From positions 1 to 49,638 of the forward strand of contig JBNKUM010000068.1 of assembly GCA_050298595.1 (NCBI GenBank): DNA of 49,638 bases. Direction: 5' to 3'. Both the position numbers and the translations under genes were made by a program. The stretch's first letter is position 1. The number at the start of each line of letters is the position of its first letter. Below the pieces are notes generated by a model. It did not search any database and was not told the DNA's origin. It saw nothing but the letters and a program-made list of their open reading frames with translations. This document shows, in pieces, positions 1 to 33,720 of the stretch. Source of the DNA: Gammaproteobacteria bacterium (GTDB lineage Bacteria > Pseudomonadota > Gammaproteobacteria > GCA-001735895).

Positions 1-1218
1 AATTCCCGGAATACTGGAAGGTGTAAAAGTATTATCCGCATTATCTACGTCACTACTGGTCAGCACGCCCGAGGTAGATAGTATAGAATCTGTTTCGGTA
101 AGGTATCTCGTATGACTACTTACGGTCGCCGCATCATTGCTACCGTTGATGGTAATTTGAACTGTGCTCGGAGTGCCGTCAATAGTGCTTACGTTGAAGG
201 TTTCATTGACACTTTCACCAAGGTTTAAATTATCGAATGCGCTATTCGCAGTAAATGTCCAGTTACCATTCGCATCAATGGCAAAAACACCTAAAGTACC
301 GCTGCTAGTCGAAGGGGTAAATGCATTGCCCTGATTATCAACATCAGTACTGCTCAGGGTACCGGAAGTCGTCAATGCCACATCAGTTTCTGTTAAGGTC
401 TGACTATCGTTACTAACAATAGCAATATCGTTAACACTGTTTACGTCTACATTGACGGTTGTGGTATCCAATCCTCCTTTACCATCACTGACGCTATAGG
501 TAAAACTATCGGGGCCATAGTAATTATCGTTCGGAATATAGTTAATAGTACCATCGGTATTGATATTTACACTGCCATGCATACCCTGAGTAACACCGCT
601 GATCATTAGTGAATCACCATTCAGATCCGTATCGTTGGCCAGTACATCTATGCTCAGGCCGGTATCTTCATTGGTGGTTAGATGGTCCAACCCTGCGACA
701 GGGCTGAAGTTAGCTACTGGCTCAGTGACGGGCGTTTCTGGTATGAAAATATTTTCACCCGTATCTATGGCATTGTTCTGCTCGTTGGCGGTAACATTGA
801 AAGCTGAAACCTGGGTATCTACATGTCCTTCCTCACCCTCTCTGGTATAGGTTGATGCTGAATGCAATGCAGCTGCTCCTGTTTGAGTTTCACCGGCAGC
901 AGTTTCTGGTAATTCATTCAGGTCTATACCATCCACAATTAACTGTTGTAATTCGGCTAATTGTTCTGCGCGCTGATCTGGAAAATCATTTATATTTGCA
1001 AATACTGTTTCATCCATCAGTACTTCGGCATCGGCACCTATCTGCAACTTCTGGCCATCGTAAAACTCAATGTCAATTTGCGAGTTAAGGCCAGTGCTTA
1101 CTACATCACCTTCGAATACTTTATCACCGTTGCTAAGTACCTTGATAATGCCATCAACATCTCGAACCTCTGCTGTGCCAGAAACTTCAACGACGAAACC
1201 GATATTTTTTGTAGTCAT
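1..1218 (-). CDS. lapA: Giant T1SS adhesin (LapA/BpfA-like), N-terminal retention module + cadherin-like/Big_9 domain + VCBS-type repeats; 3' end outside window
   Basis: Not in ORF track. Manual translation from ATG at 1218 is open to base 1 (406 codons): MTTKNIGFVVEVSGTAEVRDVDGIIKVLSNGDKVFEGD... (retention-module-like), ELPETAAG (LapG di-alanine site, T106-G109), then VLANDTDLNGDSL...DSFTYSVSDGKGG and repeats LTETD..TSG.L.S.DVDN. Lies downstream of lapEGDBC. Confidence 0.92.
   Translation of the reverse strand, partial: MTTKNIGFVVEVSGTAEVRDVDGIIKVLSNGDKVFEGDVVSTGLNSQIDIEFYDGQKLQIGADAEVLMDETVFANINDFPDQRAEQLAELQQLIVDGIDLNELPETAAGETQTGAAALHSASTYTREGEEGHVDTQVSAFNVTANEQNNAIDTGENIFIPETPVTEPVANFSPVAGLDHLTTNEDTGLSIDVLANDTDLNGDSLMISGVTQGMHGSVNINTDGTINYIPNDNYYGPDSFTYSVSDGKGGLDTTTVNVDVNSVNDIAIVSNDSQTLTETDVALTTSGTLSSTDVDNQGNAFTPSTSSGTLGVFAIDANGNWTFTANSAFDNLNLGESVNETFNVSTIDGTPSTVQITINGSNDAATVSSHTRYLTETDSILSTSGVLTSSDVDNADNTFTPSSIPGI
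892..903 (-). other. TAAG LapG cleavage motif codons in the adhesin (residues 106-109)
   Basis: ACT GCT GCC GGT in frame; motif and approximate position match the known Pseudomonas LapA TAAG site. Confidence 0.8.
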
Positions 1219-1373
1219 GATTTTCACTTTTGATTTGAACCGCAGACAATATAGATAAGGATACTTTATTCAGCATCGTACCAAAGTCGTAGTGCCACCA
1301 AAGGAAACCCCAATTCGAGACTTGAATCACAAAAAATCAGGGGACAAGTGAAATAAACGCAAGGGCGTTATGG

Positions 1374-1961
1374 CTATTTGAAATAAAGTACCAGTGCCAC
1401 TCGATCTTTGATATCGAGTTTTTTGAAGATATTGGTCAAATGAGCTTTAACAGTACGTTCCGAGATCTCGCAACGTTCAGCTATCTGCTTATTCGACAGA
1501 CCCTCTGCGACCGCACGTGCCACTTCATTTTCACGCTCAGTAAGCTCTGCAAGCGCTGCAGAATGCTGTCGTACACCCAGAGCAGCCTGAGCCAGTGAGA
1601 ATGTCTGCTCCAGCATTTGCGGAGGAAACCAGCTTTGTCCATCAGCAATCTGTTGAATCATTTGCTGATAAAGCCCTGTTTGCATATAGCTATTGCAGTA
1701 AGCCTTGCTGCCAGCCTGTACACAGGACAACATTTCAGCAATATCGGGGCGATCCGAACAGACGGCAATATTCAAACCTGCCGTTGCCATACGACGAATC
1801 CACGGAATGCTCTCTGTACCAAAAGATGTGATATGCAAAAAAAGAAGATGCCCAGCCTCGATCCGATCCGATAATTCATTCCGAACCTCAAGCGGGCTTT
1901 CCAGCTTTTCGCTTAAGTGAGCAATCAGTGATTGCGAATTCGAATACAGGATGAGGCCCAT
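1374..1961 (-). CDS. LuxR/NarL-family regulator with degenerate receiver domain
   Basis: C-terminal LTERENEVARAVAEGLSNKQIA...SERTVKAHLTNIFKKL HTH; REC-like N-terminus lacks acidic pocket; start overlaps lapC stop. Confidence 0.9.
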   Translation of the reverse strand: MGLILYSNSQSLIAHLSEKLESPLEVRNELSDRIEAGHLLFLHITSFGTESIPWIRRMATAGLNIAVCSDRPDIAEMLSCVQAGSKAYCNSYMQTGLYQQMIQQIADGQSWFPPQMLEQTFSLAQAALGVRQHSAALAELTERENEVARAVAEGLSNKQIAERCEISERTVKAHLTNIFKKLDIKDRVALVLYFK

Positions 1962-3334
1962 TACCCTTCTCTTAAGGCTTTGTCCAGTCCACGCTGAACC
2001 GGATTTATAAGATACTGGAGTATAGTTTTTTTATCGGTAACAATATCGGCATCAACCGTCATACCTACTTTTATGGGTAGTTTTTTTGATTCAGGCCCCA
2101 AAAAAGATTTTACTGGCTTTACCCTTACCAGATAAAAACTATCTCCCGCATCGTTAGTGATGGTATCGGCGCTGATAAAAGCAACATGACCTTGCAAACT
2201 GCCATGTATCGCAAAATCATAGGCTGAAAATTTAAGACGTGCTAAATCGTTGAGGTGTACCGAAGCAATATCTGCAGGTTTGATATTTAATTCGATAATA
2301 AGAGCATCATCCTGAGGCACAATTTCGAGTACATCATTACCCGGATTGACGACACCACCCACAGTATTGGCATATAGCCGTTGTACTACACCCTTTACCG
2401 GTGAACGCAAAGTAGTTCTGGTAACTCGATCCTGCAGCGCAGCCTGGGCTTCTTTAATACGGCTAATTTCTGCACTCACTTCATTCCATTCTTTTTTAGC
2501 CTTATTACGAAAACCAAGCATCTCTTCCTGTTTTTTAGAACGCGCTTCTTCAATAATCGATTGATAACGCGGTATGGACAAATCTATCGATTCCAGTTCA
2601 CCCTCCATTTCAGCCTCACGTTGCTGCAACTGAAGAAACTCTACCTCGCTGATAATGCCGCGCTCTTTTAACGGCAACTTGATCTTGATCTCTTTTTGCA
2701 GCAACTGTAGTGTTTTTTTAACCTGCCTCTGTTTCGACTCGGCTTCCTTTAACGACGTTTCCTGTTGAGATATCTGCTGCTCTAGGATACTCAAAGATTC
2801 TTTCAGCTGCTGTTTATTACTGAGAAACAGGCTTTCTTCAGCTTGTGTTAACTCTGGGGCATTTTTAGTAACCTCATCAATCGGCTTAAACTCCTGTGCA
2901 TTTGCTTCAGCATTCAATCGACTGGATCGGGCAAGTAATTCCAGATACTGCAGACGATTCTCTTCCACCGAGCTTGAGAACGCGATATCACTCATTTTAA
3001 CCAGCGCCTGGCCGGCTTCTACCGCTTCACCTTCAGTAACCAGAATCTCAGAAACAATACCGCCTTCCAGGCTCTGTATCAGCTGCACCTGACTCGCCGG
3101 TGTAACCTTGCCCGAGCCTCTAATCACCACATCGATTTCTGCCCAGCTCATCCATAAAAGTGCGGTTGCTACAAATAGCGCAATAAACAGGATCACCAGT
3201 ATCAGATAGCGAGGTGAACGATGTACCACGGCTGCGGCCAGACTTTGCATATACACAGCATCGTGTTTGCCATAGGCTCCAATCTGGGTGACATCTTCCA
3301 GGTTGGTCGTATCATCGTTGTGATCAGGATGCAT
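1961..3334 (-). CDS. lapC: HlyD-family T1SS periplasmic adaptor (LapC-like)
   Basis: N-terminal TM, IQSLEGGIV motif, coiled coil, RSPVKGVV, GMTVDADI..KKTILQYLINP. Confidence 0.93.
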   Translation of the reverse strand: MHPDHNDDTTNLEDVTQIGAYGKHDAVYMQSLAAAVVHRSPRYLILVILFIALFVATALLWMSWAEIDVVIRGSGKVTPASQVQLIQSLEGGIVSEILVTEGEAVEAGQALVKMSDIAFSSSVEENRLQYLELLARSSRLNAEANAQEFKPIDEVTKNAPELTQAEESLFLSNKQQLKESLSILEQQISQQETSLKEAESKQRQVKKTLQLLQKEIKIKLPLKERGIISEVEFLQLQQREAEMEGELESIDLSIPRYQSIIEEARSKKQEEMLGFRNKAKKEWNEVSAEISRIKEAQAALQDRVTRTTLRSPVKGVVQRLYANTVGGVVNPGNDVLEIVPQDDALIIELNIKPADIASVHLNDLARLKFSAYDFAIHGSLQGHVAFISADTITNDAGDSFYLVRVKPVKSFLGPESKKLPIKVGMTVDADIVTDKKTILQYLINPVQRGLDKALREG

Positions 3335-5477
3335 TCTGTCCTCCTTTTAACGCTTTCAATACGTCCTGCTTGGGGCCATCCATTACGATACGACCTTCAT
3401 CAACCACAATCACTCTTTCTACCAGATCCAGCAAAGGCGCTTTATGAGTGACCAGAATGAGTGTTTTATCGCGCGTGTATTCATGTAAGCGCTGCTTGAC
3501 GATGGATTCGGTTGTATTATCAAAGCTATTGGTAGGCTCATCCAGAATAAGAATTGGCTCATTCAATAAAAGAGATCGACCCAGAGCAATTGCCTGCCGT
3601 TGCCCGCCTGACAACATGGAGCCATATTCACCCACATCGGTATCAAAACCCTGCGGTAAATTATTTACAAATAAATCAACCCCACTGACATGGGCGGCTT
3701 TGAGCAGTTTTTCATCATTGGCCTGCAAATCTTTATACGCCAGATTATCGCGTATCGAGCCACGGATGAGCTCTATATCCTGCGAAAGATAGCCAATGTG
3801 ATGACGCAGATCAGCAGGATCGATTTGATTGATATCAATATTGTCTATCGCAATACTTCCCTGCTCTGCCTGATACAGGCCGAGCATCAATTTGAGCATG
3901 GTAGTTTTACCGCAACCGACCTTACCTATAATTGCCACATGCTCACCCGGCTTAATCTTAAAAGAGACATGACTAATAGACGCTTTAACCGCCTCAGGGT
4001 AATTGAAGGTGATATCTTTAAATTTAATCCCACCCTCAAAAGCAGGACGCCGCACAAAGGTTTTTCCATGCGGCCTTTCTACCTCCTTTTGCATCAGTTC
4101 ATTGAGTGTCTGATAAGCGGTTTTGGTTTGTTCAAAGGTAGTTATTAAAGCAGCTATCTGTCCCATCGGCGCGACTGCTCGTGAAGACAACATGACCGAA
4201 GCAATCAAGCCGCCTAGCGATAGCTCTTGGTCTGCAATCAGATAAATCCCATATATGATCAAACCCACCGTAGTAAATTGCACCAATAGATTGGTGATCA
4301 CCGTTATCGAGATTGAGAGCATTCTGGATCTCATTGATTTATCTGCAATAAGGCCTGAGGATTCTTCCCATACCCATTGAGAATAATTTGAGACACCCAG
4401 AGATTTAATGGTTTTGATGGAATGCAGGGTTTCTATTAAATGTGCATTTTTATTGGCAGTCGCTTCGTAGGTTTCTTCCACGCTTTGCTTTAGAGGTTTA
4501 ACCAGTATTGCGCTATAAATCAATAGAATCACAATAGTAGTCAAGGGTACTAACACCATCGAGCCGCCAATATAGAAAATCACTACCAGAAATATGACTG
4601 CAAAAGGAATATCAACCAGAGTAGCCATGGTTGATGCAGTAAAGAAATTTCGAATGCTTTCAAAATCACGCAGTTTACTGGCGAAGGCCCCGACACTCTT
4701 CGGCCATTCATTCATTTTAAGATTGAGGGTCTGCGAGAATAGAATGGACGACATGATGATATCGCTTTTCTTGCCCGCGATTTCAAGCAGATAGTTACGT
4801 AAAAAACGTAATATGGTATCAAAAATATACACTACCAGAATGCCAACCGCCAATACCCAGAGCGTTTCAATGGCATCGTTCGGTACTACCTTGTCGTAAA
4901 CATTCATCGTAAACATGGGGGTGGAAAGAATAAAGAGGTTAATCAATACCGAAGACAGTATAACGCTGGCAAAGATATCCTTTGATTTTGCCAACGTCCC
5001 CCAGAACCAGTGATTACCGTCCTTACCGGTTGTTTTGGGGATATGTTTCTGTTGCTGTAATTCACGCTTCAGTAGAAAAGCATAACCCAGATACTCCTGA
5101 TTTAACCTTTCAAGAGTGAACCACTCTTCGCCCTCACCCACTTCGGGCAATACGACTTTGGCTCGTTTATTCTTCCGGTCGATAGATTCCAGTATACAGG
5201 CATTGCCATTACGCAACACCAGAATACAGGGCAATAACAGGCGAGACAGGCTATTTAATTCTCGATGAATCAAACGGCTGGCAAATCCAGCGCGGCTGGC
5301 TACCCGCGAAAAAAGCCCCTTCGGGCTATCTATACTGAATAGCTCTGGACCACTAGCGCCCGGTTTGACGGGTAAACCGGAGATCAATGCATCCACGCTT
5401 ACCGGGCGATTATGCATCCTGGCAAAGATGACCAGGCATTCAAGCAACGGGTCGTAATGTCGATCTGGGTCAATCAT
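3324..5477 (-). CDS. lapB: T1SS permease/ATPase with C39-like N-terminal domain (LapB/LssB-like)
   Basis: DPLLECL N-terminus, MNVYDKVVP TM domain, Walker A GKVGCGKT, LSGGQRQ, LDEPT. Confidence 0.95.
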   Translation of the reverse strand: MIDPDRHYDPLLECLVIFARMHNRPVSVDALISGLPVKPGASGPELFSIDSPKGLFSRVASRAGFASRLIHRELNSLSRLLLPCILVLRNGNACILESIDRKNKRAKVVLPEVGEGEEWFTLERLNQEYLGYAFLLKRELQQQKHIPKTTGKDGNHWFWGTLAKSKDIFASVILSSVLINLFILSTPMFTMNVYDKVVPNDAIETLWVLAVGILVVYIFDTILRFLRNYLLEIAGKKSDIIMSSILFSQTLNLKMNEWPKSVGAFASKLRDFESIRNFFTASTMATLVDIPFAVIFLVVIFYIGGSMVLVPLTTIVILLIYSAILVKPLKQSVEETYEATANKNAHLIETLHSIKTIKSLGVSNYSQWVWEESSGLIADKSMRSRMLSISITVITNLLVQFTTVGLIIYGIYLIADQELSLGGLIASVMLSSRAVAPMGQIAALITTFEQTKTAYQTLNELMQKEVERPHGKTFVRRPAFEGGIKFKDITFNYPEAVKASISHVSFKIKPGEHVAIIGKVGCGKTTMLKLMLGLYQAEQGSIAIDNIDINQIDPADLRHHIGYLSQDIELIRGSIRDNLAYKDLQANDEKLLKAAHVSGVDLFVNNLPQGFDTDVGEYGSMLSGGQRQAIALGRSLLLNEPILILDEPTNSFDNTTESIVKQRLHEYTRDKTLILVTHKAPLLDLVERVIVVDEGRIVMDGPKQDVLKALKGGQNAS

Positions 5478-5652: not shown

Positions 5653-7584
5653 CTATTCAGACATTTCTCCAGGAGCTTCTGGTTCATGCAGGTAATTTCC
5701 CTGCAAATTCTGTATACCTAGCTCAACCAGTACTTCATAAAGTTCTTTTGAATCAACCCCAACTGCGATTAGCGTGATGTTCATGGTATCAGTTAGAGTC
5801 TTCAATGCCTGATAGCCTGCAGACATATCGTTTTGACTAATATCATGCAGAGTTCTTGCATTGATCTTCACATAATCGAAACGAGCTATTTTCAACAGAT
5901 CCAGGGATTGCCCTATATCCAGGTGATCTATACCCATCTGATGACCCGACTGATGTACTCTGCTAGCAACCTGCTGGCACATCAACAGATGCTGTGCCAG
6001 AATGCTATGGCTGGCTTCAATACATAAACCTGCCCCACGCTCCTGACATCGCGTAAGTAGTTGATCAAATTCATATTGAGCATCCGCCTGTTCAAAAAAG
6101 GCGGCACTCAAATTCAGCGCCAGGGGCAACGGTTCATCGCCTGGCTGAATTTCTGAAATTATCTTAAACACAGCCTTATCGATATCGATAGACATACCCA
6201 GGCTACTAGCCATTGGCATAAAAGTGGACGCAGGTAATACCTGACCTGATTCATCTCTGGCCCGGATATACAGCTCCCTGTGCACGTTCTGCCCATTAGG
6301 ATGCTTGACCAGTTGCCCCACCATGAATAAACGTTGAGAAGCGATGGTCTGCTCCAGCCAATGTCGCCATTGCATCTTGCCCTGAGGCAAATCGATCTGA
6401 TTAGATGCACGTCGCTCTATCGACCAGGGACCACTGCCATCAGCCTGGGTCAGACAGTAATCGATGCCCGATAGAATTTCGCCAGCAGTACTACTACCAT
6501 CAATTGCCGAAATCGCTCCAATTAGAAACAACTCAACCTCTGACCGGGTTACCTGATCCCACTCTTTAACGCGACAAAATAGCTGTTGCATATAGTTTTT
6601 CGTCGATTCTTCATCAGCAGCAAATAGAAAGGCGAATTCATCATCATTCAATCGAGCTGGAGATTGCAGGTTTGATTCATCACCCAGTAGCTGCGCCATT
6701 TGCTTGATCAAGGCATCTGAAAACTCATACCCCAGACGCTCCCTGGCAATTTCATAATTCACCAGTTTGATGATCGCAAGCGAGCCGTGAAACTGAGATT
6801 GCTCTGAGCTAGCCTGCTGCAGCTGGTCCATGAGATACTGGCGATTACCCAGATTGGTCACTTTATCGTTGTACAGCAACTTCTGATATTTGTTCAGACT
6901 TTCCTGTTGGTCATTAAATATCACCTGCACCTTGGACACCATATTATTCATGGCCTCGACGACACGCTTCAAATCAATGGTTCTGGGTAATGATTCCTGC
7001 TGCACAAAACGGTTGTTTTGAATCGCATCGGCCTGTTCCATAACTCGCTTCAAAGGAAGCAACAGATACTGTAACACCAGCCACAGCAGTATCAGGGCGA
7101 CCAGAAACATTAAACCAAACCACTTCACAGTTGAGATTAGAGTTCTGTATAACTTGCTATAGGCAAACCCTGGGTGCATGGTCACTTCAAGTCGACCCAA
7201 TTGAGTCCAGCCCTTCATCACCTGGGTAGAGCCCTGAGCCTGACTCAGCGGAATTAAACTGATAAACCAGTCCGGTACGCCTTCAACACTGACCTGCTGA
7301 CTTTTTTGCTGGATAGTCTTGTTATCTACTGAAACCAGTTCAATGCTCGAGTAATAACCGCTATCAAATACCGCATTAAATAATACCTCAAGCGTTGCAG
7401 GATCATTACTTTCAGGCAGATTACTGATCACTATCCCTAAGGTAGTTGCCATATCCTGTGCTGTAGTATGCAGTTGCCCCTGCATAAATTCACGGGTGCG
7501 ATTTAAGTCGTTGATAACGATAACGCTGGCAAGAATGATAAATACCAGTGTCACTAACAATGCTATTTGCTTGAATAAGGTCAT
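5653..7584 (-). CDS. lapD: LapD-like c-di-GMP receptor (periplasmic domain-HAMP-degenerate GGDEF-degenerate EAL)
   Basis: MTLFKQI start, FDSGYY, GWTQ (LapG-binding Trp loop), RLNDDEF in place of GGDEF, ELYIR and GIDHLD in place of EAL/DDFG; overlaps lapG stop. Confidence 0.92.
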   Translation of the reverse strand: MTLFKQIALLVTLVFIILASVIVINDLNRTREFMQGQLHTTAQDMATTLGIVISNLPESNDPATLEVLFNAVFDSGYYSSIELVSVDNKTIQQKSQQVSVEGVPDWFISLIPLSQAQGSTQVMKGWTQLGRLEVTMHPGFAYSKLYRTLISTVKWFGLMFLVALILLWLVLQYLLLPLKRVMEQADAIQNNRFVQQESLPRTIDLKRVVEAMNNMVSKVQVIFNDQQESLNKYQKLLYNDKVTNLGNRQYLMDQLQQASSEQSQFHGSLAIIKLVNYEIARERLGYEFSDALIKQMAQLLGDESNLQSPARLNDDEFAFLFAADEESTKNYMQQLFCRVKEWDQVTRSEVELFLIGAISAIDGSSTAGEILSGIDYCLTQADGSGPWSIERRASNQIDLPQGKMQWRHWLEQTIASQRLFMVGQLVKHPNGQNVHRELYIRARDESGQVLPASTFMPMASSLGMSIDIDKAVFKIISEIQPGDEPLPLALNLSAAFFEQADAQYEFDQLLTRCQERGAGLCIEASHSILAQHLLMCQQVASRVHQSGHQMGIDHLDIGQSLDLLKIARFDYVKINARTLHDISQNDMSAGYQALKTLTDTMNITLIAVGVDSKELYEVLVELGIQNLQGNYLHEPEAPGEMSE

Positions 7585-8297
7585 TGTGCGTCTTTCCTGA
7601 AATCAGCAAGCAGTTTTTTCCACTTACTGTTCTTGATTTTATCGGTGGGTAGAGATTTTCCCAGGCCTGCAGATGCATTACTCAGGAACAGGGAATTAGC
7701 GTTGAAACTATATACTGGTAACAGATCCAGCCGTTTTGATGCTGACAGAATCTGTGGATTATAATTATCCAGAATTTTGGGGATGCTTTTAGGCGTCACA
7801 AAATAACTTAATACCATATGTGCGGCATTCTGATTGAGTGCTTTTACATAGGTCAGGTAAAGTCGGTTATCAGGTACTCCGAGTTTTCTTAATGCAAAGT
7901 ACTTGGCAATGACGAAGTCTTCGCAATCTCCCTGTTGGGTACCCAGGAATTCCTGTGGTGTGGCCCAGTAATCTTTAACTCCCCACTGATCCTTGTCCTC
8001 TCGATATTGAAACTGATTAAAGAAGCGATTAACTTCAATCAGCTGGGTATCTTCGTCTTTGTCCTTTAATTCATCCAGCAATTTATTCAGTGCGATGCCG
8101 CGCCTGTAAGCCTGATCGGAATAATTCTGTTTTAAACTCTGCAACATGCCATCGCTTACAAATGGATCAGCTGATGGTATCAATGGAAGCCAGATCAGCA
8201 GGCACAATGCAAGCAGTGGATAGCATTTTGCAATATCGATATGTCGTCTAAACAAGTAATCTGGCTCAGTATTTCGCTTGCGCAAAGTGTAGCTCAA
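7581..8297 (-). CDS. lapG: LapG-like transglutaminase-like cysteine protease (BTLCP, C93)
   Basis: DYWATPQEFL, GDCEDFVIAKY (Cys), AHMVL (His), ILDN (Asp); TTG start uncertain. Confidence 0.93.
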   Translation of the reverse strand: MSYTLRKRNTEPDYLFRRHIDIAKCYPLLALCLLIWLPLIPSADPFVSDGMLQSLKQNYSDQAYRRGIALNKLLDELKDKDEDTQLIEVNRFFNQFQYREDKDQWGVKDYWATPQEFLGTQQGDCEDFVIAKYFALRKLGVPDNRLYLTYVKALNQNAAHMVLSYFVTPKSIPKILDNYNPQILSASKRLDLLPVYSFNANSLFLSNASAGLGKSLPTDKIKNSKWKKLLADFRKDAQ

Positions 8298-8323: not shown

Positions 8324-10468
8324 CTAAAAAGAGGTACCTCTGGCCCTGAACATGAATTCGCCGCGTCGATTGATCGCCTGACCCTCCTTGCTTGCATTAT
8401 CTGCAATCGGCATTTCTTCACCCATACCCTGAACTTCGATATAGGCAGGATCTATGCCTCGTGCCACCAACAAATCTCGCATCGCCTTAGCACGTTTATG
8501 CGATAGCTTCATATTGTAAGAATTTGATCCTGTACTATCCGTATGAGCTAAAACCCGAATCTGAATTTCACCCGCAGCTTTGATTTGATTGATGATCATT
8601 TCAACCTTTTCTTTGGAGCTATCGGTCAAATCAGTACTCATATATTTAAAATTCACCAGTTGCATTTTAGTCAGATCAATTAAGGAGCTTTGTACAACCT
8701 TAATAGATACCATCGCGGTATCTACACCACCTTTGCCATCGGATACAGTGTAGGTGAAAGAGTCTATGCCTTCAAAACGCTCCTGGGGACGATAGACCAA
8801 ATTCTTTTCCTTACTAAAGGCCAGTTTCCCATTCGTTACTTTGGTAAAACCGGTGATGGTCAATTGATCTCCATTGATATCAGAATCGTTTGCGAGTAAT
8901 TGAGATTGAGAGATAATCAATACACCGTGACCATCGACTTCCAATGAGTCATTTTCAGCTATCGGCGCTACATTCACTGATAACTTCGCAAGTTCTACCT
9001 TACCATCCACTGAACAACCGTATTTGTTTACGGTTTGCTGGTTCAGGGTATTATCACAATGATCAGTTGTATCCTCTTCCTTGTCCTTATCTTCATCTTT
9101 GGGTAAAGGTAGCGCATCCTTCTCATTGGCTTTTATGCGTGCGATGGTGAAATCATTTTCACTAAGCTCTGAGTGTAAATTTAAAGCATCAAACAACCCA
9201 CCCAAGGATTCATACACTCTGTAACGAGCGGCCATTAAATCGAAATAGGCTTTGGTGTAATCATTATTCGCTGTGTTCAATTCATTTTCCGCATCCAGCA
9301 GGTCGATTAAATCTCTCTGACCAATAAAAAACTCTTCGCGATATGAGCCAACGGTTTCACTGGCTTTTAGAATATACTGCTGGAAAAAATCAAGCTGGCG
9401 CTGCAGAGATTCATCAGCTGCCCAGGCCAGGCGCAGTGTATTTATGATTTGACGACGGACACGTGCAGCAAAATCTTTCTGTGCGTAAACTGCACTGATT
9501 TTTTTATTTTGATCCGATTCATCAGCACCGCCATTGTAGAAATTATAAGTCAGATTCAACACCAGACTTACTTCAGAAGTATCGCCAGAAACACCTCCAA
9601 TATCATTTCCCCATTCAGAAGCCAGGCGTAAATCGAGATTCGGATAACGAGAACTTTTGCTGCGCTGATAATCGAACTGAGAAGCTTCAATATTACTGCT
9701 GGCTACTTTTACTGCCGGATGTCGTAACAATGCCTGATCGATTAACGTATTCAAGTCTTCACGCGGTATTTCAGGTAACGATGGTTCAACTAAATCCTGC
9801 GCCTCTACATAACGACCCAGTAACTGGTGCAATTCGGTTAACGCATCATTCAGATTATTTTGCTGCGCTATCAGGCTGGCATGCGCTCTGGCCACACGTC
9901 CTTCTGTTTGCTGTAGCTGCGAACGACGCCCCACACCTGAGCTATTACGTTCCGTGATTTGAGCCAGTATCCCTTCATGCGATGCCACATTTTCTTTAGC
10001 TAGCTGGTAGAGTTTTTTATGCTTTAACACATTCAGGTAGGCTTGAATGGTATTCAATGCAATATTGTCAGCGGTATCGTAAAGATCATATAAGGCTGCC
10101 TGCGCTCTGGACTCATTTTGCTTAATCTGGTTAGTTGACTGATACCCGTTAAACAGGTTTTGTGTCACTGATAGCTCGACACGAGAGCTGTCATAATCAA
10201 CAGCATTGCCACCGGTAGAGGGTGACTCGGTATTATACAAACCCGTTGATGCCTGCAGATCAACACTGGGGCGGTTACTACTGGAAGCAATCGACTGGTC
10301 ACTGAGTACCTGACGGTACACGTGTACTTTTTCCTTAACCAGGGGATGCGCACTAATGGCATCAGACACGATATCAGCCAGTTCGTCTGCTTGTATCGAA
10401 ACAGAAAATACTGTCACTGTAGAGAGCGTGAGCAGTCTAAATAATTTTTTAAGCCTACAGATTTTCAT
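8324..10468 (-). CDS. lapE: TolC-family T1SS outer-membrane protein (LapE/AggA-like) with C-terminal Asp/Cys loop, cadherin-like Ig domain and OmpA domain
   Basis: Signal peptide, TolC repeats (TQNLFNG, GQRDLIDLLDAENE), DEDKDKEEDTTDHCDNT..GC, LLANDSDINGD..DSFTYTVSDGKGG, HTDSTGS..YNMKLS..RA..NRR. Confidence 0.9.
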   Translation of the reverse strand: MKICRLKKLFRLLTLSTVTVFSVSIQADELADIVSDAISAHPLVKEKVHVYRQVLSDQSIASSSNRPSVDLQASTGLYNTESPSTGGNAVDYDSSRVELSVTQNLFNGYQSTNQIKQNESRAQAALYDLYDTADNIALNTIQAYLNVLKHKKLYQLAKENVASHEGILAQITERNSSGVGRRSQLQQTEGRVARAHASLIAQQNNLNDALTELHQLLGRYVEAQDLVEPSLPEIPREDLNTLIDQALLRHPAVKVASSNIEASQFDYQRSKSSRYPNLDLRLASEWGNDIGGVSGDTSEVSLVLNLTYNFYNGGADESDQNKKISAVYAQKDFAARVRRQIINTLRLAWAADESLQRQLDFFQQYILKASETVGSYREEFFIGQRDLIDLLDAENELNTANNDYTKAYFDLMAARYRVYESLGGLFDALNLHSELSENDFTIARIKANEKDALPLPKDEDKDKEEDTTDHCDNTLNQQTVNKYGCSVDGKVELAKLSVNVAPIAENDSLEVDGHGVLIISQSQLLANDSDINGDQLTITGFTKVTNGKLAFSKEKNLVYRPQERFEGIDSFTYTVSDGKGGVDTAMVSIKVVQSSLIDLTKMQLVNFKYMSTDLTDSSKEKVEMIINQIKAAGEIQIRVLAHTDSTGSNSYNMKLSHKRAKAMRDLLVARGIDPAYIEVQGMGEEMPIADNASKEGQAINRRGEFMFRARGTSF

Positions 10469-10787
10469 TGAATAGTACTTAATTTATGGAATAGAAGTAG
10501 TTGCTAATATATTAGCATAGGATAAAAATTATGAGGTCTTTTTAACAATTTCCAAAACCACACATCCTGTTTCACCATATTTTTTAATATATTTTATAAA
10601 TACTTATAATTGAAGTAACCGGATATATTACATGATTGAGCCTCTTCAGATTCATTTTTTTAGCCTGAAACAATTTTAGCTATAAAAATACTACCCTCTA
10701 GCGGAACTATAAATTTTTGTCCGTAATCAATCTGATACCTCTGATAGAATCGTAAACAGGAACGTGCAGAATACTGAGGAATACAAC
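10469..10787. promoter_or_regulatory. AT-rich divergent promoter region between the lap operon and the ABC exporter
   Basis: Non-coding, strongly AT-rich, head-to-head starts; individual elements not resolved. Confidence 0.45.
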
Positions 10788-11933
10788 ATGGCGAAATTAA
10801 AGATATTTTTCTGGCTGTTAATCCTTTTGGTAATCATCGCTTCATTCGTTTATTGGGCACAAAGAAAAAAGCTCATTGAGGTAACAATAGAAGAGGTCAC
10901 TCAGGGTGAGATTCAGCGCACTATAACCAATACCCGTGCAGGCACTCTGAATGCCTGTCGCCGTGCCCGCCTGTCACCCTCGCTAGGTGGCCAGATAGCA
11001 AACCTGCCAGTAAGCGAAGGTGAAAGGGTCACCAGTGGCCAGCTTTTATTTGAAATCTGGAACCGGGATTTACGCGCTCAACTACAACTGGCTAAATCTG
11101 AGTTACTCTCCAGCCAATCGTTACAACAACAGTCCTGTATTCAGGCAGAGCTTGCGCAACAGGAAGCTCACCGCTTATCTCAACTGCTCTCACGCGGACT
11201 AGCCTCCGATGAATCTGCTGAAAAAGCAGTCGGGCAATCACGCGCCAGTCAGGCAGCCTGTGATTCAACCACAGCCAATGTGAGCGTAAGCCGCGCACGA
11301 ATTGAAGTCGCTGAAGCGGCCCTGCAGCGAACCCAGTTACGCGCACCCTTCGATGGCATCATTGCCGAAGTGAATGGCGAGCTGGGAGAGTACGTCACAC
11401 CCTCCCCTGTCGGCATCCCTACCCCGCCAGCTATCGATATTATTGATACCAGCTGTCTGTATGTTTCTGCCCCCATCGATGAAGTGGATGCTCCAGAAAT
11501 TCGTGCAGGTATGACTGCACGGATTTCTCTGGATGCCTTCGGGAAACATTATTTTGAGGGCAAGGTTCGTCGTGTCGCTCCCTATGTTCTGGATATAGAA
11601 AAACAGGCCCGCACCGTAAATATAGAAGTTGACTTCATTACTGCGAACGACAACCGCAATATGCTACCTGGATATACTGCAGATGTTGAAATCATCATTG
11701 ATGCACATGAAAACAGTCTGCGCGTACCTAGTCAGTCATTATTAAAAGGCAAACGAGTATATCTATACGACTCTGACTTCGACACCATTAGTGAAGTAGA
11801 AGTGAAAACCGGTTTGAGTAACTGGGAGTTCACTGAGATTCTGCAGGGTCTTGAGCAGGGCCAGAAAATTGTTACCTCCATTGATAAAAAAGGCCTGGAG
11901 GAAGGCGCTCTGGTCAAAGTCGTCAGCGAATAA
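10788..11933 (+). CDS. MacA-like efflux periplasmic adaptor (MFP)
   Basis: ATG at 10788 after GAGGA; N-terminal TM; LRAPFDGII, PGYTADVEI, V.TGLSN..TEI..GL..G. Confidence 0.9.
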   Translation: MAKLKIFFWLLILLVIIASFVYWAQRKKLIEVTIEEVTQGEIQRTITNTRAGTLNACRRARLSPSLGGQIANLPVSEGERVTSGQLLFEIWNRDLRAQLQLAKSELLSSQSLQQQSCIQAELAQQEAHRLSQLLSRGLASDESAEKAVGQSRASQAACDSTTANVSVSRARIEVAEAALQRTQLRAPFDGIIAEVNGELGEYVTPSPVGIPTPPAIDIIDTSCLYVSAPIDEVDAPEIRAGMTARISLDAFGKHYFEGKVRRVAPYVLDIEKQARTVNIEVDFITANDNRNMLPGYTADVEIIIDAHENSLRVPSQSLLKGKRVYLYDSDFDTISEVEVKTGLSNWEFTEILQGLEQGQKIVTSIDKKGLEEGALVKVVSE

Positions 11934-11936
11934 AAA

Positions 11937-12617
11937 ATGATCAAACTATCCAACATTCATCGCGACTTTCAGGTAGGCGAGCAGACCGTACATGCACTGG
12001 ATGATATAAACCTGGAAATCCAGCAGGGTGAGTATGTTTCGGTAATGGGACCTTCAGGATCAGGTAAATCTACCCTGCTCAACTTAATTGGCATGCTGGA
12101 TCATGCTTCAAGCGGAGAGTATGTCCTTAACGAGATCAACATTACTGATATGAATGAACAGCAGGAAGCCCACACCAGAAACCGTTTGATCGGGTTTGTT
12201 TTTCAGTCCTTCCATTTGATCCCACGACTAACTGCGGCAGAAAATATTGAGCTGCCACTAGTCATCGCAGGCATAGAGCCCGAGATTCGAGCGCAAAGAG
12301 TAGCGCAGGCTATTAGCAGCATGAATCTGGATGATCGAAAACACCATAAACCCGATCAATTATCCGGCGGTCAGCGCCAACGTGTTGCAATTGCGCGGGC
12401 GACCGTTACTGAACCATCTGTATTACTGGCCGATGAGCCTACCGGCAACCTTGATCAGAAATCCGGTCAGGATGTGATACAGAGTCTTGAGTTACTCAAC
12501 GCCAATGGCATTACCCTGATTGTGGTCACTCATGATACACAGCTGGGGCTACGTGCCAGACGAGCACTTAGAATAGTCGATGGTCGTATCGTATCGGACC
12601 AGGATAATCCCGGCTGA
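11937..12617 (+). CDS. ABC ATP-binding protein (LolD/MacB NBD type)
   Basis: [43 protein letters not shown]. Confidence 0.95.
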   Translation: MIKLSNIHRDFQVGEQTVHALDDINLEIQQGEYVSVMGPSGSGKSTLLNLIGMLDHASSGEYVLNEINITDMNEQQEAHTRNRLIGFVFQSFHLIPRLTAAENIELPLVIAGIEPEIRAQRVAQAISSMNLDDRKHHKPDQLSGGQRQRVAIARATVTEPSVLLADEPTGNLDQKSGQDVIQSLELLNANGITLIVVTHDTQLGLRARRALRIVDGRIVSDQDNPG

Positions 12618-13831
12618 TGACTATGTTTAAACGTGATATTTTAAGCTTTGCCTGGTCATCCCTGAATGGATATCGCAGTCGTACTCTGCTGATGTTGCTG
12701 GCCATGAGCATTAGCGTAGCTTCGGTATTACTGCTAACAGCTTTGGGCGACGGCGCGCGTCGATATGTGTTACAGGAATTTATCTCTCTCGGCACTAATC
12801 TGGTGATTGTACTTCCGGGTAAGAGTGAAACCTCAGGTGCAGGCTTAAGCAGCATGATGGGGATTACACCTAGAGACCTGACCCTTTCCGATGCCAGAGC
12901 CTTAACTCGACACCCGGCAATCACGAATATTGCTCCGTTGAATATCGGATCAGTGGAAGCTTCCTGGCAAAACCGTAAGCGCCAGGTAACGCTGATGGGG
13001 TCTACCTCAGAATTGCTTGCCGTCAGACAGTGGAAAATGGGCAGCGGTGAATTTTTACCCGAAACTGAATGGGACCGGGCTGCATCGGTTTGCGTTATCG
13101 GGCGCAAGATCCGTGATGAACTATTCGGTTCTCACAATGCGCTTGGACAATGGATACGCCTGGGTGAAAATCGATACCGCGTGATCGGGGTAATGGCTTC
13201 GTCGGGCCGCTCAATAGGCGTTGATGTACAGGAAGTGGTGATCGTCCCTGTCGCTGCCGCTCAATCATTATTAAATACCGAAGGCCTGTTTCGTATCCTG
13301 ATCCAAACCAAAAATACTGAGGACATGCCAGCGGTCATCGAATTTACCGAAAAGACCATCCAGCAACGCCATCACGGCGTTAAGGATATTACGGTGATCA
13401 CTCAGGATGCGGTGATTAAGACCTTTGACAATATTCTCTCAGCACTCACCTACGCACTGGCGGCTATTGCTGCGATTAGTCTGGGTGTTGCCGGAATTCT
13501 CATCATGAATGTCATGCTGGTGGCCGTATCTCAACGAACGGCCGAAATTGGATTACTTAAGGCATTGGGCGCATCCAGGCATACCATACTGCTGTTAATC
13601 CTGAGTGAAGCATTACTTTTATCGATGCTGGGTTCACTGTTTGGATTCATCATTGGGGGTTTAGGAAGCTGGGGACTGTCTAGCGCAGTGCAAGACCTGC
13701 AGGCTTACCCTCCACTGTGGGCTTTGTTGGCTTCGCTTACAGTCGCTTTGTTAACTGGACTTCTTTTCAGCCTGATTCCTGCACGTAAGGCTGCGCGCAT
13801 GGATCCTGTAAATGCTTTGCAGGGTCATTGA
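12617..13831 (+). CDS. MacB/FtsX-type ABC permease 1
   Basis: RTLLMLL TM1, large periplasmic domain, GILIMNVMLVAVSQRTAEIGLLKALGA, PARKAARMDPV; TGATG coupling. Confidence 0.92.
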   Translation: MTMFKRDILSFAWSSLNGYRSRTLLMLLAMSISVASVLLLTALGDGARRYVLQEFISLGTNLVIVLPGKSETSGAGLSSMMGITPRDLTLSDARALTRHPAITNIAPLNIGSVEASWQNRKRQVTLMGSTSELLAVRQWKMGSGEFLPETEWDRAASVCVIGRKIRDELFGSHNALGQWIRLGENRYRVIGVMASSGRSIGVDVQEVVIVPVAAAQSLLNTEGLFRILIQTKNTEDMPAVIEFTEKTIQQRHHGVKDITVITQDAVIKTFDNILSALTYALAAIAAISLGVAGILIMNVMLVAVSQRTAEIGLLKALGASRHTILLLILSEALLLSMLGSLFGFIIGGLGSWGLSSAVQDLQAYPPLWALLASLTVALLTGLLFSLIPARKAARMDPVNALQGH

Positions 13832-13833
13832 TT

Positions 13834-15033
13834 ATGCGCATCGCTGACTTTCTTCATCTCACGCTCACGTCATTATTAACACACAAATTACGTAGCCTTT
13901 TAACCATGCTGGGGATTTCTGTCGGTATTCTAGCGGTAATAATCCTGACTTCTATCGGCGAAGGTATGCATAAATTCATACTCGCCGAATTCACTCAGTT
14001 CGGTACCACGTTGGTCGCCATCAACCCGGGAAAGACGGATACGATGGGTGTGTCGATGGGGGTATTCGGCAGCGACAGGCCCTTATCCATTGATGATGCA
14101 GAAGCCATCAAGCGACTGCCATTTGCACAAACTGTGGTTGGAATTATCCAGGGTAATGCCGAGGTCGAAGGCAATAAGCGCAACCGTCGAACTACGGTTT
14201 ATGGCAGTGGCTCCGATTTTCCACAGGCTTTCAGAATGCCGGTTTCACTGGGGGAGTTTCTTCCGCCGGATGACCCACTCGCACCGCGAGCATTTACCGT
14301 GCTAGGTAGCAAGATAAAACAGGAATTATTTGGCGATCAGAATCCTATAGGGCAACGCATACGCATAGGTGGTGATCGCTACCGGGTAATAGGTGTCATG
14401 CAATCCAAGGGACAGGTTCTGGGTTTTGATCTGGACGACACGGTGTATATCCCTTTAGCGCGCGGTCTGGAAATGTTCAATCGCGAGGGGTTGATGGAAA
14501 TCGATCTGCTATACCACCCAGCTAGTGATGAAGACAGTGTTGTGGCTGGCATAAAACGCCTGCTGCTAGCGCGTCATGGGCGTGAGGATTTCACCATTAC
14601 CAGTCAGCAGCAAATGCTTGATGTCATGGGGTCTATTCTCAACATCATTACTTTTGCGGTTGGCGCCATAGGCTCTATTTCATTACTGGTGGGTGGTATA
14701 GGGATTATCACCATCATGACGATCAGTGTCGCTGAAAGAACCTCAGAAATCGGCTTACTCAGAGCATTGGGCGCTGAACATAATCAGATTATGCTACTTT
14801 TCCTCGGCGAAGCCGTGGTACTTTCAGCTGTAGGAGGACTCGCAGGGCTACTCGGTGCAACAACCATTTTGCTATTGGTACAGTTATTTTTACCTGATCT
14901 CCCAGTGCATACACCCTGGAATTATATTTTGCTGGCAGAATCAAGCGCAGTATTTATCGGATTGCTTACTGGAGTATTACCCGCCCGTCGTGCTGCTAAA
15001 ATGGATCCAGTTGAAGCATTGCGTAATGAGTAG
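13834..15033 (+). CDS. MacB/FtsX-type ABC permease 2
   Basis: KLRSLLTMLGI, GGIGIITIMTISVAERTSEIGLLRALGA, PARRAAKMDPVEALRNE; ATG 13834 preferred over TTG 13828. Confidence 0.92.
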   Translation: MRIADFLHLTLTSLLTHKLRSLLTMLGISVGILAVIILTSIGEGMHKFILAEFTQFGTTLVAINPGKTDTMGVSMGVFGSDRPLSIDDAEAIKRLPFAQTVVGIIQGNAEVEGNKRNRRTTVYGSGSDFPQAFRMPVSLGEFLPPDDPLAPRAFTVLGSKIKQELFGDQNPIGQRIRIGGDRYRVIGVMQSKGQVLGFDLDDTVYIPLARGLEMFNREGLMEIDLLYHPASDEDSVVAGIKRLLLARHGREDFTITSQQQMLDVMGSILNIITFAVGAIGSISLLVGGIGIITIMTISVAERTSEIGLLRALGAEHNQIMLLFLGEAVVLSAVGGLAGLLGATTILLLVQLFLPDLPVHTPWNYILLAESSAVFIGLLTGVLPARRAAKMDPVEALRNE

Positions 15034-32784: not shown

Positions 32785-33243
32785 TTAATTAAATAAACGC
32801 TTGATGGTATTTGATAGCCAACCACCAGCATCCTTTTTTTCGATCAACGCTAATTGCCGCCGAACCAGAGGCACGTAGCTTTGATCGTCATCCAGAATAT
32901 GATTGATTAACCAGGTTTGCAGTAAAGTTCCAATTTCAGCACTAACATCATTTCCCTGCTTGAAACGCTGATGTAAATCACCGACGCGTTCGCTAAAAGC
33001 CTCGTGGGTGCGCTTATGAACACTCAGAAACTCATACCCGGCCTCTTCCATTAAGGCTTCCTCAAAAGCAAAGTGGGAATAAGTATAATCAATTAATGCG
33101 TTAATCAGTTCAGCCATTTCATCATGCCCGGCATGACCATCAAAATCTACCAGCTGGTTGATATAATCGACGATACGCTTATGCTGCGTATCAATCACAT
33201 TGATGCCTATTTCATATTCCTGCTTCCACTCTACACGCCGCAT
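32785..33243 (-). CDS. Bacteriohemerythrin 2
   Basis: GINVIDTQHK, HFAFEE.LM...GY, HKRTH, WLINHILDDD. Confidence 0.93.
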   Translation of the reverse strand: MRRVEWKQEYEIGINVIDTQHKRIVDYINQLVDFDGHAGHDEMAELINALIDYTYSHFAFEEALMEEAGYEFLSVHKRTHEAFSERVGDLHQRFKQGNDVSAEIGTLLQTWLINHILDDDQSYVPLVRRQLALIEKKDAGGWLSNTIKRLFN

Positions 33244-33264
33244 ATGTTTTAAACCTGCTACTGT

Positions 33265-33720
33265 TTAACCAAAGAACTTTTTCATATTACGCGAAAACCA
33301 ACTCCTTCGACGTGAATCGCCGGTATTCAATTGAGTACGCACTATCTCAGAGTAATCATAATCATCGTTTCGAATATGGTTAATCAGCCAGGCCTTAAGA
33401 GTATTGTGCAACTCTTCGGTTATATCTTCACCCATCTTAAATCGTTGCATATAGTCACTAACACGTCTAATAAATAACTCATGCACGCGTTTATGAGCTT
33501 TTATAAAGGGATAGCCAGCCTCTTCCATAAGGCTTTCTTCAAAGGTGAAATGTGATAGCGTATAGTCAACCAGCTCATCCAGAACCACACCCACTTCTTC
33601 CATGCTGTGATGCTCGCGGGTATCCTCCAGCTTATTGATATAATCGACGATACGTCGGTGCTGGTTATCGATCACATCAATACCAGTGTCTAAACTGTCG
33701 CTCCAATCAATATAAGCCAT
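33265..33720 (-). CDS. Bacteriohemerythrin 1 (Mhr-like)
   Basis: WSDSLDTGIDVIDNQHR, HFTFEE, HKRVH, WLINHIRNDD. Confidence 0.94.
   Translation of the reverse strand: MAYIDWSDSLDTGIDVIDNQHRRIVDYINKLEDTREHHSMEEVGVVLDELVDYTLSHFTFEESLMEEAGYPFIKAHKRVHELFIRRVSDYMQRFKMGEDITEELHNTLKAWLINHIRNDDYDYSEIVRTQLNTGDSRRRSWFSRNMKKFFG

Follow-up and report, generated by a model that had tools for sequence, protein, structure and literature searches.

Giant repeats-in-toxin (RTX) adhesins are held solely by a plug in the pore of a TolC-type protein, and the characterised LapE proteins of Lap-type systems are plain TolC-sized proteins that are not known to carry a tail. In E. coli TolC, the termini are periplasmic and lie at the equatorial region. 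Here we describe a lapE-type gene in a stretch of 49,638 nucleotides from a gammaproteobacterium (positions 1 to 49,638 of contig JBNKUM010000068.1, assembly GCA_050298595.1; hereafter "the window"), in which a TolC body is continued, within a single reading frame, by a tail composed of an acidic cysteine loop, an immunoglobulin (Ig)-like domain and an OmpA-type domain. The question touched by this protein is how a plugged adhesin assembly withstands extraction from the fluid outer membrane. As in the Pseudomonas fluorescens Lap system, the TolC duct of the window is accompanied by a LapB-type ATP-binding cassette (ABC) transporter, an HlyD-family adaptor, LapG-like and LapD-like proteins, and a cargo that has a retention module as well as a TAAG site; on the other hand, LapG and LapD are matched in the window with scores under the respective NCBIfam equivalog cut-offs. 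In P. fluorescens, LapA is reported to be held in LapE by its retention module (10.1101/198937).

Wall-binding domains have been reported in other secretion systems of giant adhesins. TpgA, the wall-binding helper of the adhesin AtaA in Acinetobacter sp. Tol 5, is likewise a periplasmic OmpA-type binder on a giant-adhesin anchor and has been proposed to act against extraction (PMC13082670; 10.64898/2026.01.22.700529); its binding approximately doubled the simulated extraction force (PMC13082670). TpgA differs from the tail described here in that it serves type Vc secretion and is a protein of its own, with a BamE-like domain making the contact to the barrel. SiiA, from Salmonella's SPI4 (pathogenicity island 4) type I secretion system (T1SS) for the adhesin SiiE, is also an accessory wall-binding component of a T1SS for a giant adhesin; it is reported to bind peptidoglycan, and a wall-binding mutant showed lowered invasion (10.1101/641415). 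Unlike the tail, SiiA is a MotB-like inner-membrane protein that, jointly with SiiB, conducts protons. In Shewanella, a separate OmpA-like gene (SO4321 / Sputcn32_3595) is located between aggA and bpfG (PMC3672883; PMC4523816), and deletion of SO4321 is reported to impair biofilm formation (PMC4523816). SO4321 and the tail both lie between the tolC and lapG genes of a Lap-type operon, and are likened here by gene position as given in these papers.

The lapE-type gene of the window and its parts are as follows.

8324..10468, reverse strand: lapE-type gene for a TolC-family outer membrane factor with a C-terminal tail (714 amino acids, stop codon included in the coordinates; Pfam, NCBIfam, AlphaFold, Foldseek)
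9134..10387, reverse strand: TolC body, approximately residues 28-445 (two Pfam OEP stretches, TIGR01844, helix and strand pattern of the model)
9014..9118, reverse strand: acidic repeat of thrombospondin type 3 (TSP3) with the Cys471-Cys485 loop, residues 451-485 (conservation and motif profile)
8978..9013, reverse strand: variable spacer, residues 486-497 (predicted local distance difference test, pLDDT, <60)
8696..8977, reverse strand: tandem-95 / Big_9 / Cadherin_5 Ig-like domain, residues 498-591 (Pfam; pLDDT >90 in the tail model)
8366..8650, reverse strand: OmpA_C-type peptidoglycan-binding domain, residues 607-701 (Pfam OmpA, structure matches)

The open reading frame (ORF) runs from the TolC part through the tail without a stop or frame break and encodes four modules, i.e., the TolC body, the acidic Cys loop, the tandem-95/cadherin-like Ig domain and the OmpA-type domain. 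Residues 1-27, judged by eye, look like a Sec signal peptide. Pfam OEP matched the protein in two stretches (E = 1.2e-46), and NCBIfam TIGR01844 (TolC) matched residues 27-429 with 252.4 bits (cut-off 225.15); the domain matches of the protein are far beyond chance. A full-length AlphaFold model, computed from an alignment of 54 relatives, had a mean pLDDT of 78.8, with a confident TolC body, Ig and OmpA blocks at approximately 80-91 and low confidence for residues 450-496. When the tail (264 residues) was modelled separately, pLDDT exceeded 90 across the Ig and OmpA domains and the predicted template modelling score (pTM) was 0.74; the two domains are thus predicted to form a single unit. Foldseek searches with the full-length model retrieved solved TolC structures (1ek9, 7ng9, 2xmn and others; E = 1e-19 to 1e-18) with target template modelling scores (TM-scores) of 0.65-0.72, which identifies the TolC fold. 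The TolC part of the model terminates in short strands at the equatorial region, and the tail is presumably periplasmic. Between the second Cys and the start of the Ig domain lie 8 to 70 residues, depending on the locus (median 16). The first-pass annotation, made from the sequence of the window, had described this four-part protein and had placed its parts correctly: DEDKDKEEDTTDHCDNT..NKYGC corresponds to residues 458-485 (9014-9097), and the Ig domain to residues 498-591 (8696-8977).

The OmpA-type domain matched Pfam OmpA (residues 607-701) with E = 1.9e-20 and 73.4 bits, as compared to a cut-off of 27.2. Among solved structures, its best sequence match was the C-terminal domain of OprF (5u1h; E = 4.3e-17), and the modelled domain was superposed on 5u1h, 3td3, 3td5 and 4g4v with TM-scores of 0.79-0.89; the solved wall-binding domains closest to it include one with a bound peptidoglycan peptide. 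The invariant residues of the domain are D644, R659, N700, R701 and R702. D644 and R659, both unchanged in all 54 of the 54 sequences, line up with the TD..RRA motif in OprF and correspond to the conserved Asp and Arg of the OmpA_C family, which we take to hold the diaminopimelate carboxylate. As both the fold and the invariant Asp/Arg pair of the family are retained, the assignment of an OmpA domain in the first-pass annotation holds, and the domain probably binds peptidoglycan.

For the acidic Cys loop, 12 positions (D451, P454, D458, D460, D462, D469, H470, C471, D472, N473, G484 and C485) were invariant in all 54 aligned members. The spacing between the two Cys was constant in 59 of 59 loci, and the mature protein contains no other Cys, which suggests a Cys471-Cys485 disulfide. 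A motif profile of 36 columns retrieved 2587 proteins at E ≤0.001 among 1.84 billion, the top matches carrying 4-44 tandem copies. All 24 proteins that were scanned among the best 150 of these 2587 matches carried Pfam TSP_3 above the cut-off, 17 of the 24 also carried OmpA, and one scanned match additionally carried an OprF barrel. Moreover, in free-standing OmpA proteins, TSP_3 repeats recognised by Pfam are followed by a C..GC loop, and the tail of a relative without the Ig domain (locus L061) could be aligned in register with both. Judged by these profiles and alignments, the loop belongs to the TSP3 repeats, as had been suggested when it was likened to the thrombospondin-3/OprF linker, and the spacing DxDxDxxxDxxDxC would be consistent with calcium binding. 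In the tail, as in OprF-type OmpA proteins, a TSP_3 repeat is followed by a C..GC loop and then by OmpA_C. It differs from them in its membrane anchor, a small beta-barrel in these proteins and a predicted TolC trimer here, and in the Ig domain that is inserted between the loop and OmpA_C.

We also assessed how widely the fusion is distributed. A search with the tail retrieved 741 proteins, and a domain check on the best 120 clusters found TolC, Ig and OmpA together in 88, while the other 32 represented multi-Ig proteins. A genome scan, which covered one genome per species and used two TolC-body patterns (its reach being limited to this TolC subfamily), yielded 68 loci, 59 of them with a whole tail; 57 of these 59 encode the four-part protein. 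The nine incomplete loci comprise eight that are cut by contig ends and one (L065) that stops early. Of the 59 loci, 56 have LapG following the tail, 48 keep the ABC transporter and 45 the HlyD adaptor. The six downstream genes are complete in 42 loci, and all 42 show the gene order of the window; operon genes are missing at contig ends, except in L063, which is without lapG and lapD. With the tail conserved in 57 of 59 loci and the operon order in 42 of 42, the fusion is a stable trait of the family rather than an artefact, and the four-part architecture first seen in the window is both real and conserved. The carriers include two cultured Zhongshania; the rest are mainly uncultured Gammaproteobacteria, some of them labelled Kangiellaceae, Thiotrichales or Litorivivens.

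A number of individual loci deserve mention. In L052 (L052:6246-9089; 948 amino acids) the Ig-OmpA unit is present twice; its Ig copies group as sisters in the Ig tree, indicating that a tandem duplication occurred recently. L061 (L061:9989-11821; 611 amino acids) encodes the TSP3 loop and OmpA without an Ig domain; it forms a long branch that is placed beside an Ig-bearing clade in the unrooted TolC-body tree, with a Shimodaira-Hasegawa-like approximate likelihood ratio test (SH-aLRT) value of 87, and given this unrooted tree a loss of the Ig domain is likely. In L065 (L065:592-1422), the TolC ORF ends at 276 amino acids and is followed by an unrelated ORF of 613 amino acids, which represents either a disrupted gene or a chimeric assembly. 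L011 and L056 are labelled Acidimicrobiia and Rhodobacter, respectively, yet carry this Gram-negative Lap operon; these contigs are probably mis-binned. In L003 (L003:19249-22140) LapE is identical to that of the window and the cargo is a different one, with TAEG in place of TAAG. Among 40 shorter proteins that were inspected for a free-standing Ig plus OmpA form, nine carried both domains, all on contigs of ≤3.9 kb; these nine look like fragments, two of them retaining part of a TolC body, and a free-standing Ig-OmpA form did not emerge from this set.

The gene stands first in a Lap-type operon with the order lapE-lapG-lapD-lapB-lapC-luxR-adhesin, the further members of which are listed below.

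7581..8297, reverse strand: LapG-like periplasmic cysteine protease (Pfam Peptidase_C93, 56.5 bits, cut-off 27)
5653..7584, reverse strand: LapD-like receptor for cyclic di-GMP (c-di-GMP) with LapD_MoxY_N, GGDEF and EAL domains (LapD_MoxY_N, 132.8 bits, cut-off 25)
3324..5477, reverse strand: T1SS ABC transporter of the LssB/LapB type (TIGR03375, 886.8 bits, cut-off 693.1)
1961..3334, reverse strand: HlyD-family T1SS adaptor, LapC-like (TIGR01843, 382 bits, cut-off 208.65)
1374..1961, reverse strand: LuxR-type regulator between lapC and the adhesin gene (NCBIfam; kept in 45 of 59 loci)
1..1227, reverse strand: cargo adhesin gene, 5' part; the gene continues beyond the window (NF033682, tand_rpt_95, VCBS)
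approximately 868-1203, reverse strand: retention module of the cargo
892-903, reverse strand: TAAG site of the cargo (residues 109-112)
442-711, reverse strand: first tandem-95 Ig domain of the cargo, followed by VCBS

The LapG-like protein matched NF045674 (LapG) with E = 1e-56 and 191.6 bits, under the equivalog cut-off of 320, and the LapD-like protein matched NCBIfam LapD with 347.1 bits, under the equivalog cut-off of 1020. The cargo matched NF033682 (retention_LapA) with 58.6 bits (cut-off 50) and tand_rpt_95 with 90.1 bits. The assignment to the Lap type is borne out by the retention module and the TAAG site of the cargo, together with the LapB-type ABC transporter and HlyD matches above their cut-offs. 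Within the LapG site of related cargos A110 and G112 are almost invariant, and [TPAS]AAG was found in 35 of 42; the other seven are without such a site in the first 160 residues.

Several Lap-type and adhesin-associated loci carry a separate OmpA gene beside tolC. A plasmid of Marinomonas algicola shows the order TolC, lipoprotein (annotated LptE), OmpA-family protein, LapG-like peptidase, EAL protein, T1SS ABC transporter, HlyD and response regulator; its OmpA-family protein carries TSP_3 repeats and OmpA (Pfam), and the tail of the window aligns to it over its whole length beginning with the Cys loop (E = 7e-13). The gene order thus matches that of the window with the tail as a separate polypeptide, the differences being further TSP3 repeats in place of the Ig domain and an extra lipoprotein gene. 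This lipoprotein gene (L070:10345-11199; Pfam LptE, E = 1.3e-06) lies between the Marinomonas tolC and OmpA genes and has no counterpart in the window. On a plasmid of Vibrio harveyi, genes for a giant Ig-like protein and TolC are followed by an OmpA gene, the product of which has OmpA as its sole Pfam match and a visible, weak stretch resembling the Asp/Cys loop. A fused form was found on plasmid pACLO of Arcobacter cloacae, which encodes a TolC-TSP3-OmpA-TSP3-OmpA protein of 860 amino acids (L069:14986-17568) adjoining a T1SS ABC transporter, HlyD, a regulator, a protein of 3430 amino acids and a LapG-like peptidase. As in the window, TolC is fused to TSP3 and OmpA; unlike in the window, there are two TSP3-OmpA units, no Ig domain and a different gene order. 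As Arcobacter belongs to the Campylobacterota, TolC-OmpA fusions extend beyond Gammaproteobacteria. In a protein atlas, we also noted TolC clusters with OmpA, TSP_3, SPOR or He_PIG domains, some of them named for adhesin transport; these are leads only, the SPOR and He_PIG clusters suggesting that other kinds of wall-binding tails occur on T1SS ducts.

Overall, comparison of domains and gene order indicates that the window protein unites in one chain the TolC and OmpA-family proteins that a gene pair encodes in other Lap-type operons. Neither the parts nor the split arrangement are new; the form in which they are fused and accompanied by an Ig domain is widespread and uncharacterised. The statement in the first-pass annotation that no LapE with this four-part architecture had been characterised therefore stands in part: no description of a TolC-OmpA fusion was found in the full-text literature searched (most subscription journals being outside its scope), while the architecture is not rare and represents a fused form of a known gene pair. 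The existence of a natural fusion speaks for a joint function of the TolC pore and the orphan OmpA-like genes in adhesin operons of the Shewanella, Marinomonas and Vibrio types, and it assigns to these genes a partner and a testable role.

We propose that the tail serves as a fused cell-wall tether of a Lap-type adhesin pore and bears the load of the adhesin. The LapE-type TolC would represent the exit duct, from which the giant adhesin would be displayed and released under the control of c-di-GMP, LapD and LapG. Each protomer would continue from the periplasmic equatorial region into the tail, i.e., the acidic TSP3 repeat closed by a 15-residue disulfide loop, the spacer, the tandem-95 Ig domain and OmpA_C. 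The flexible acidic loop would lead to a rigid Ig-OmpA unit able to reach the wall, where OmpA_C would grip peptidoglycan non-covalently, and a trimer would thus have three tethers by which the pore, along with the adhesin stalled in it, is fixed to the cell wall. As LapA-type adhesins stay plugged in LapE, the adhesin would in this way be connected to the wall and not to the fluid membrane alone. By analogy, calcium may stiffen the tethers. We regard this proposal as a whole as probable; for its parts, tethering of the duct to the wall appears highly probable, while a load-bearing purpose of the tail, which rests on analogy with other adhesin anchors, is put forward tentatively, on a nearly even balance that tilts slightly against it. 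The proposal is directly testable, with Zhongshania guokunii and Z. borealis as cultured carriers and with D644, R659, C471 and C485 as targets for point mutations.

Several observations weigh against this proposal. Pfam TSP_3 matched neither the whole protein nor the isolated linker at E values up to 10, the isolated linker matching nothing at all in Pfam within that limit, and neither the Cys loop nor its profile had a match among solved structures. The natural member without an Ig domain (L061) indicates that this domain is not indispensable. For SO4321, the Shewanella authors offer other roles in the text cited (PMC4523816). Finally, when the wall-binding domain of a Veillonella trimeric autotransporter was impaired, release of the adhesin under shear is reported not to have increased (10.64898/2026.01.22.700529); the load-bearing idea is therefore not general.

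The Veillonella result favors the alternative that the tail binds the wall for a purpose other than resistance to pulling, e.g., that it positions or immobilises the pore, settles the barrel in the peptidoglycan mesh, stabilises LapE after its inner-membrane partners have left, or acts as a staple in the manner of OmpA or Pal. This alternative draws on the same domain evidence as the load-bearing tether. Furthermore, wall-binding domains occur on many machines (TagL of type VI secretion, PorE of type IX secretion, Dot/Icm and MotY were among the structural matches), and of the TolC clusters with OmpA or SPOR domains in the atlas, one is named for adhesin transport and others are not, although these clusters are leads only. 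Against this alternative stands the strict association of the fused form with adhesin operons in this family, as seen in the 56 of 59 loci with lapG after the tail, and the examples from Arcobacter, Marinomonas and Vibrio also adjoin giant proteins. We consider wall binding without load unlikely, albeit with appreciable weight.

The arms formed by the Ig and OmpA domains at the periplasmic mouth of the pore could also act on the release switch, either by holding the retention module or by gating the access of LapG to the TAAG site. The tail is inherited jointly with LapG, LapD and the retention module in a fixed operon, the Ig domains of the tails form a conserved clade of their own (see below), the Ig and OmpA domains were modelled as one unit (pTM as given above), and the Shewanella authors speculate on a link to BpfG/BpfD in the text cited (PMC4523816). 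On the other hand, L061 is without the Ig domain, and Arcobacter and Marinomonas have TSP3 repeats in its place. A complex prediction for the tail (264 residues) with the cargo retention module (130 residues), run twice and without controls, gave a score of 0.00, which weighs neither way. An action on the release switch appears improbable. Equally doubtful is a broader version, in which wall anchoring would be a general fourth component of Lap-type secretion, provided by a fused OmpA tail, perhaps a SPOR tail, or an adjacent OmpA gene, and in which the arms would in addition form a cage that holds the retention module and sets the access of LapG; if this were true, the release switch would receive an input from the mechanical load that acts on the adhesin.

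A further possibility is that the tail Ig domain was recently copied from the cargo, or co-evolves with it, and thus marks a specific relationship between duct and cargo. The first-pass annotation had noted a close match between the tail and the first Ig domain of the cargo in two pairs of motifs; all four motifs were found exactly as written, the second pair being identical at 14 of 16 positions. The tail Ig domain itself matched Pfam Big_9 (residues 499-589; E = 4.3e-21, 76 bits, cut-off 23.6) and Cadherin_5 (residues 498-591; E = 5.9e-21, 74.6 bits, cut-off 26.5), and reached 68.5 bits with NCBIfam tand_rpt_95, under the cut-off of 90. Its identity to the first Ig domain of the cargo was 42% over 93 residues (E = 4e-18). 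However, 40 tandem-95 domains from unrelated proteins showed 34-47% identity to the tail Ig domain over the whole domain, as compared to 41% for the cargo, and 7 of these 40 reached at least 14 of 16 on the motif, although these 40 domains were the best matches of the tail search and hence represent a generous baseline. In a tree of 124 Ig domains, all 60 tail domains fell on one side of a branch with SH-aLRT 99, whereas 24 cargo domains and the 40 unrelated domains were intermixed. Forcing the tail Ig domain and the first cargo Ig domain to be sisters worsened the likelihood by 46.7 log units (P = 0.004; approximately unbiased test) in a subset of 40 rows (14 tail, 14 cargo and 12 other domains, drawn from the 60, 24 and 40, respectively).

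Moreover, the first cargo Ig domain was closer to a domain of an unrelated protein (57% identity) than to the tail Ig domain (41%). Within the sequenced portions, a tandem-95 domain was seen in merely 13 of 42 cargo N-termini, and for the two closest relatives (LapE 89% and 87% identical) none was present in the 882 and 984 cargo residues available. As unrelated domains match equally well, the tail domains form their own clade and the sister pairing is rejected, the likeness between the two Ig domains is family-level only, i.e., the motif match is no more than the domain family yields. A special link to the cargo thus was not supported, and a recent copy or co-evolution is very unlikely; the caveat that the similarity might be family-level, which had accompanied the observation of the motif match, proved correct. 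The main clades of the tail-Ig tree reappear in the TolC-body tree, which fits inheritance of the Ig domain along with the duct.

An assembly or gene-calling artefact, by which tolC would have been joined to a neighbouring OmpA gene such as the split form seen in other genera, has practically no likelihood left as an explanation of the fusion: like the single uninterrupted frame of the window, the frame is open in 59 loci that were assembled independently, two of them in isolate genomes, and the linker is conserved across the junction between TolC and the tail.

Upstream of lapE, the window carries a divergent MacA/MacB-like exporter (10764-15033, forward strand) that comprises an HlyD-type adaptor, an ABC ATPase and two MacB_PCD/FtsX permeases. 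A small divergent ABC ATPase upstream was also seen in L001, L003, L004, L008, L010, L040, L062 and L064. The remainder of the window contains ordinary chromosomal genes. At 46805-48594 (reverse strand), a dnaX ORF of 374 amino acids covers positions 1-372 of a model with 655 positions and is adjacent to an ORF of 175 amino acids without a family match; a frameshift, a gene that is split or divergence of the tau C-terminus could account for this arrangement. At 32785-33720 (reverse strand), a pair of bacteriohemerythrin genes is arranged in tandem.

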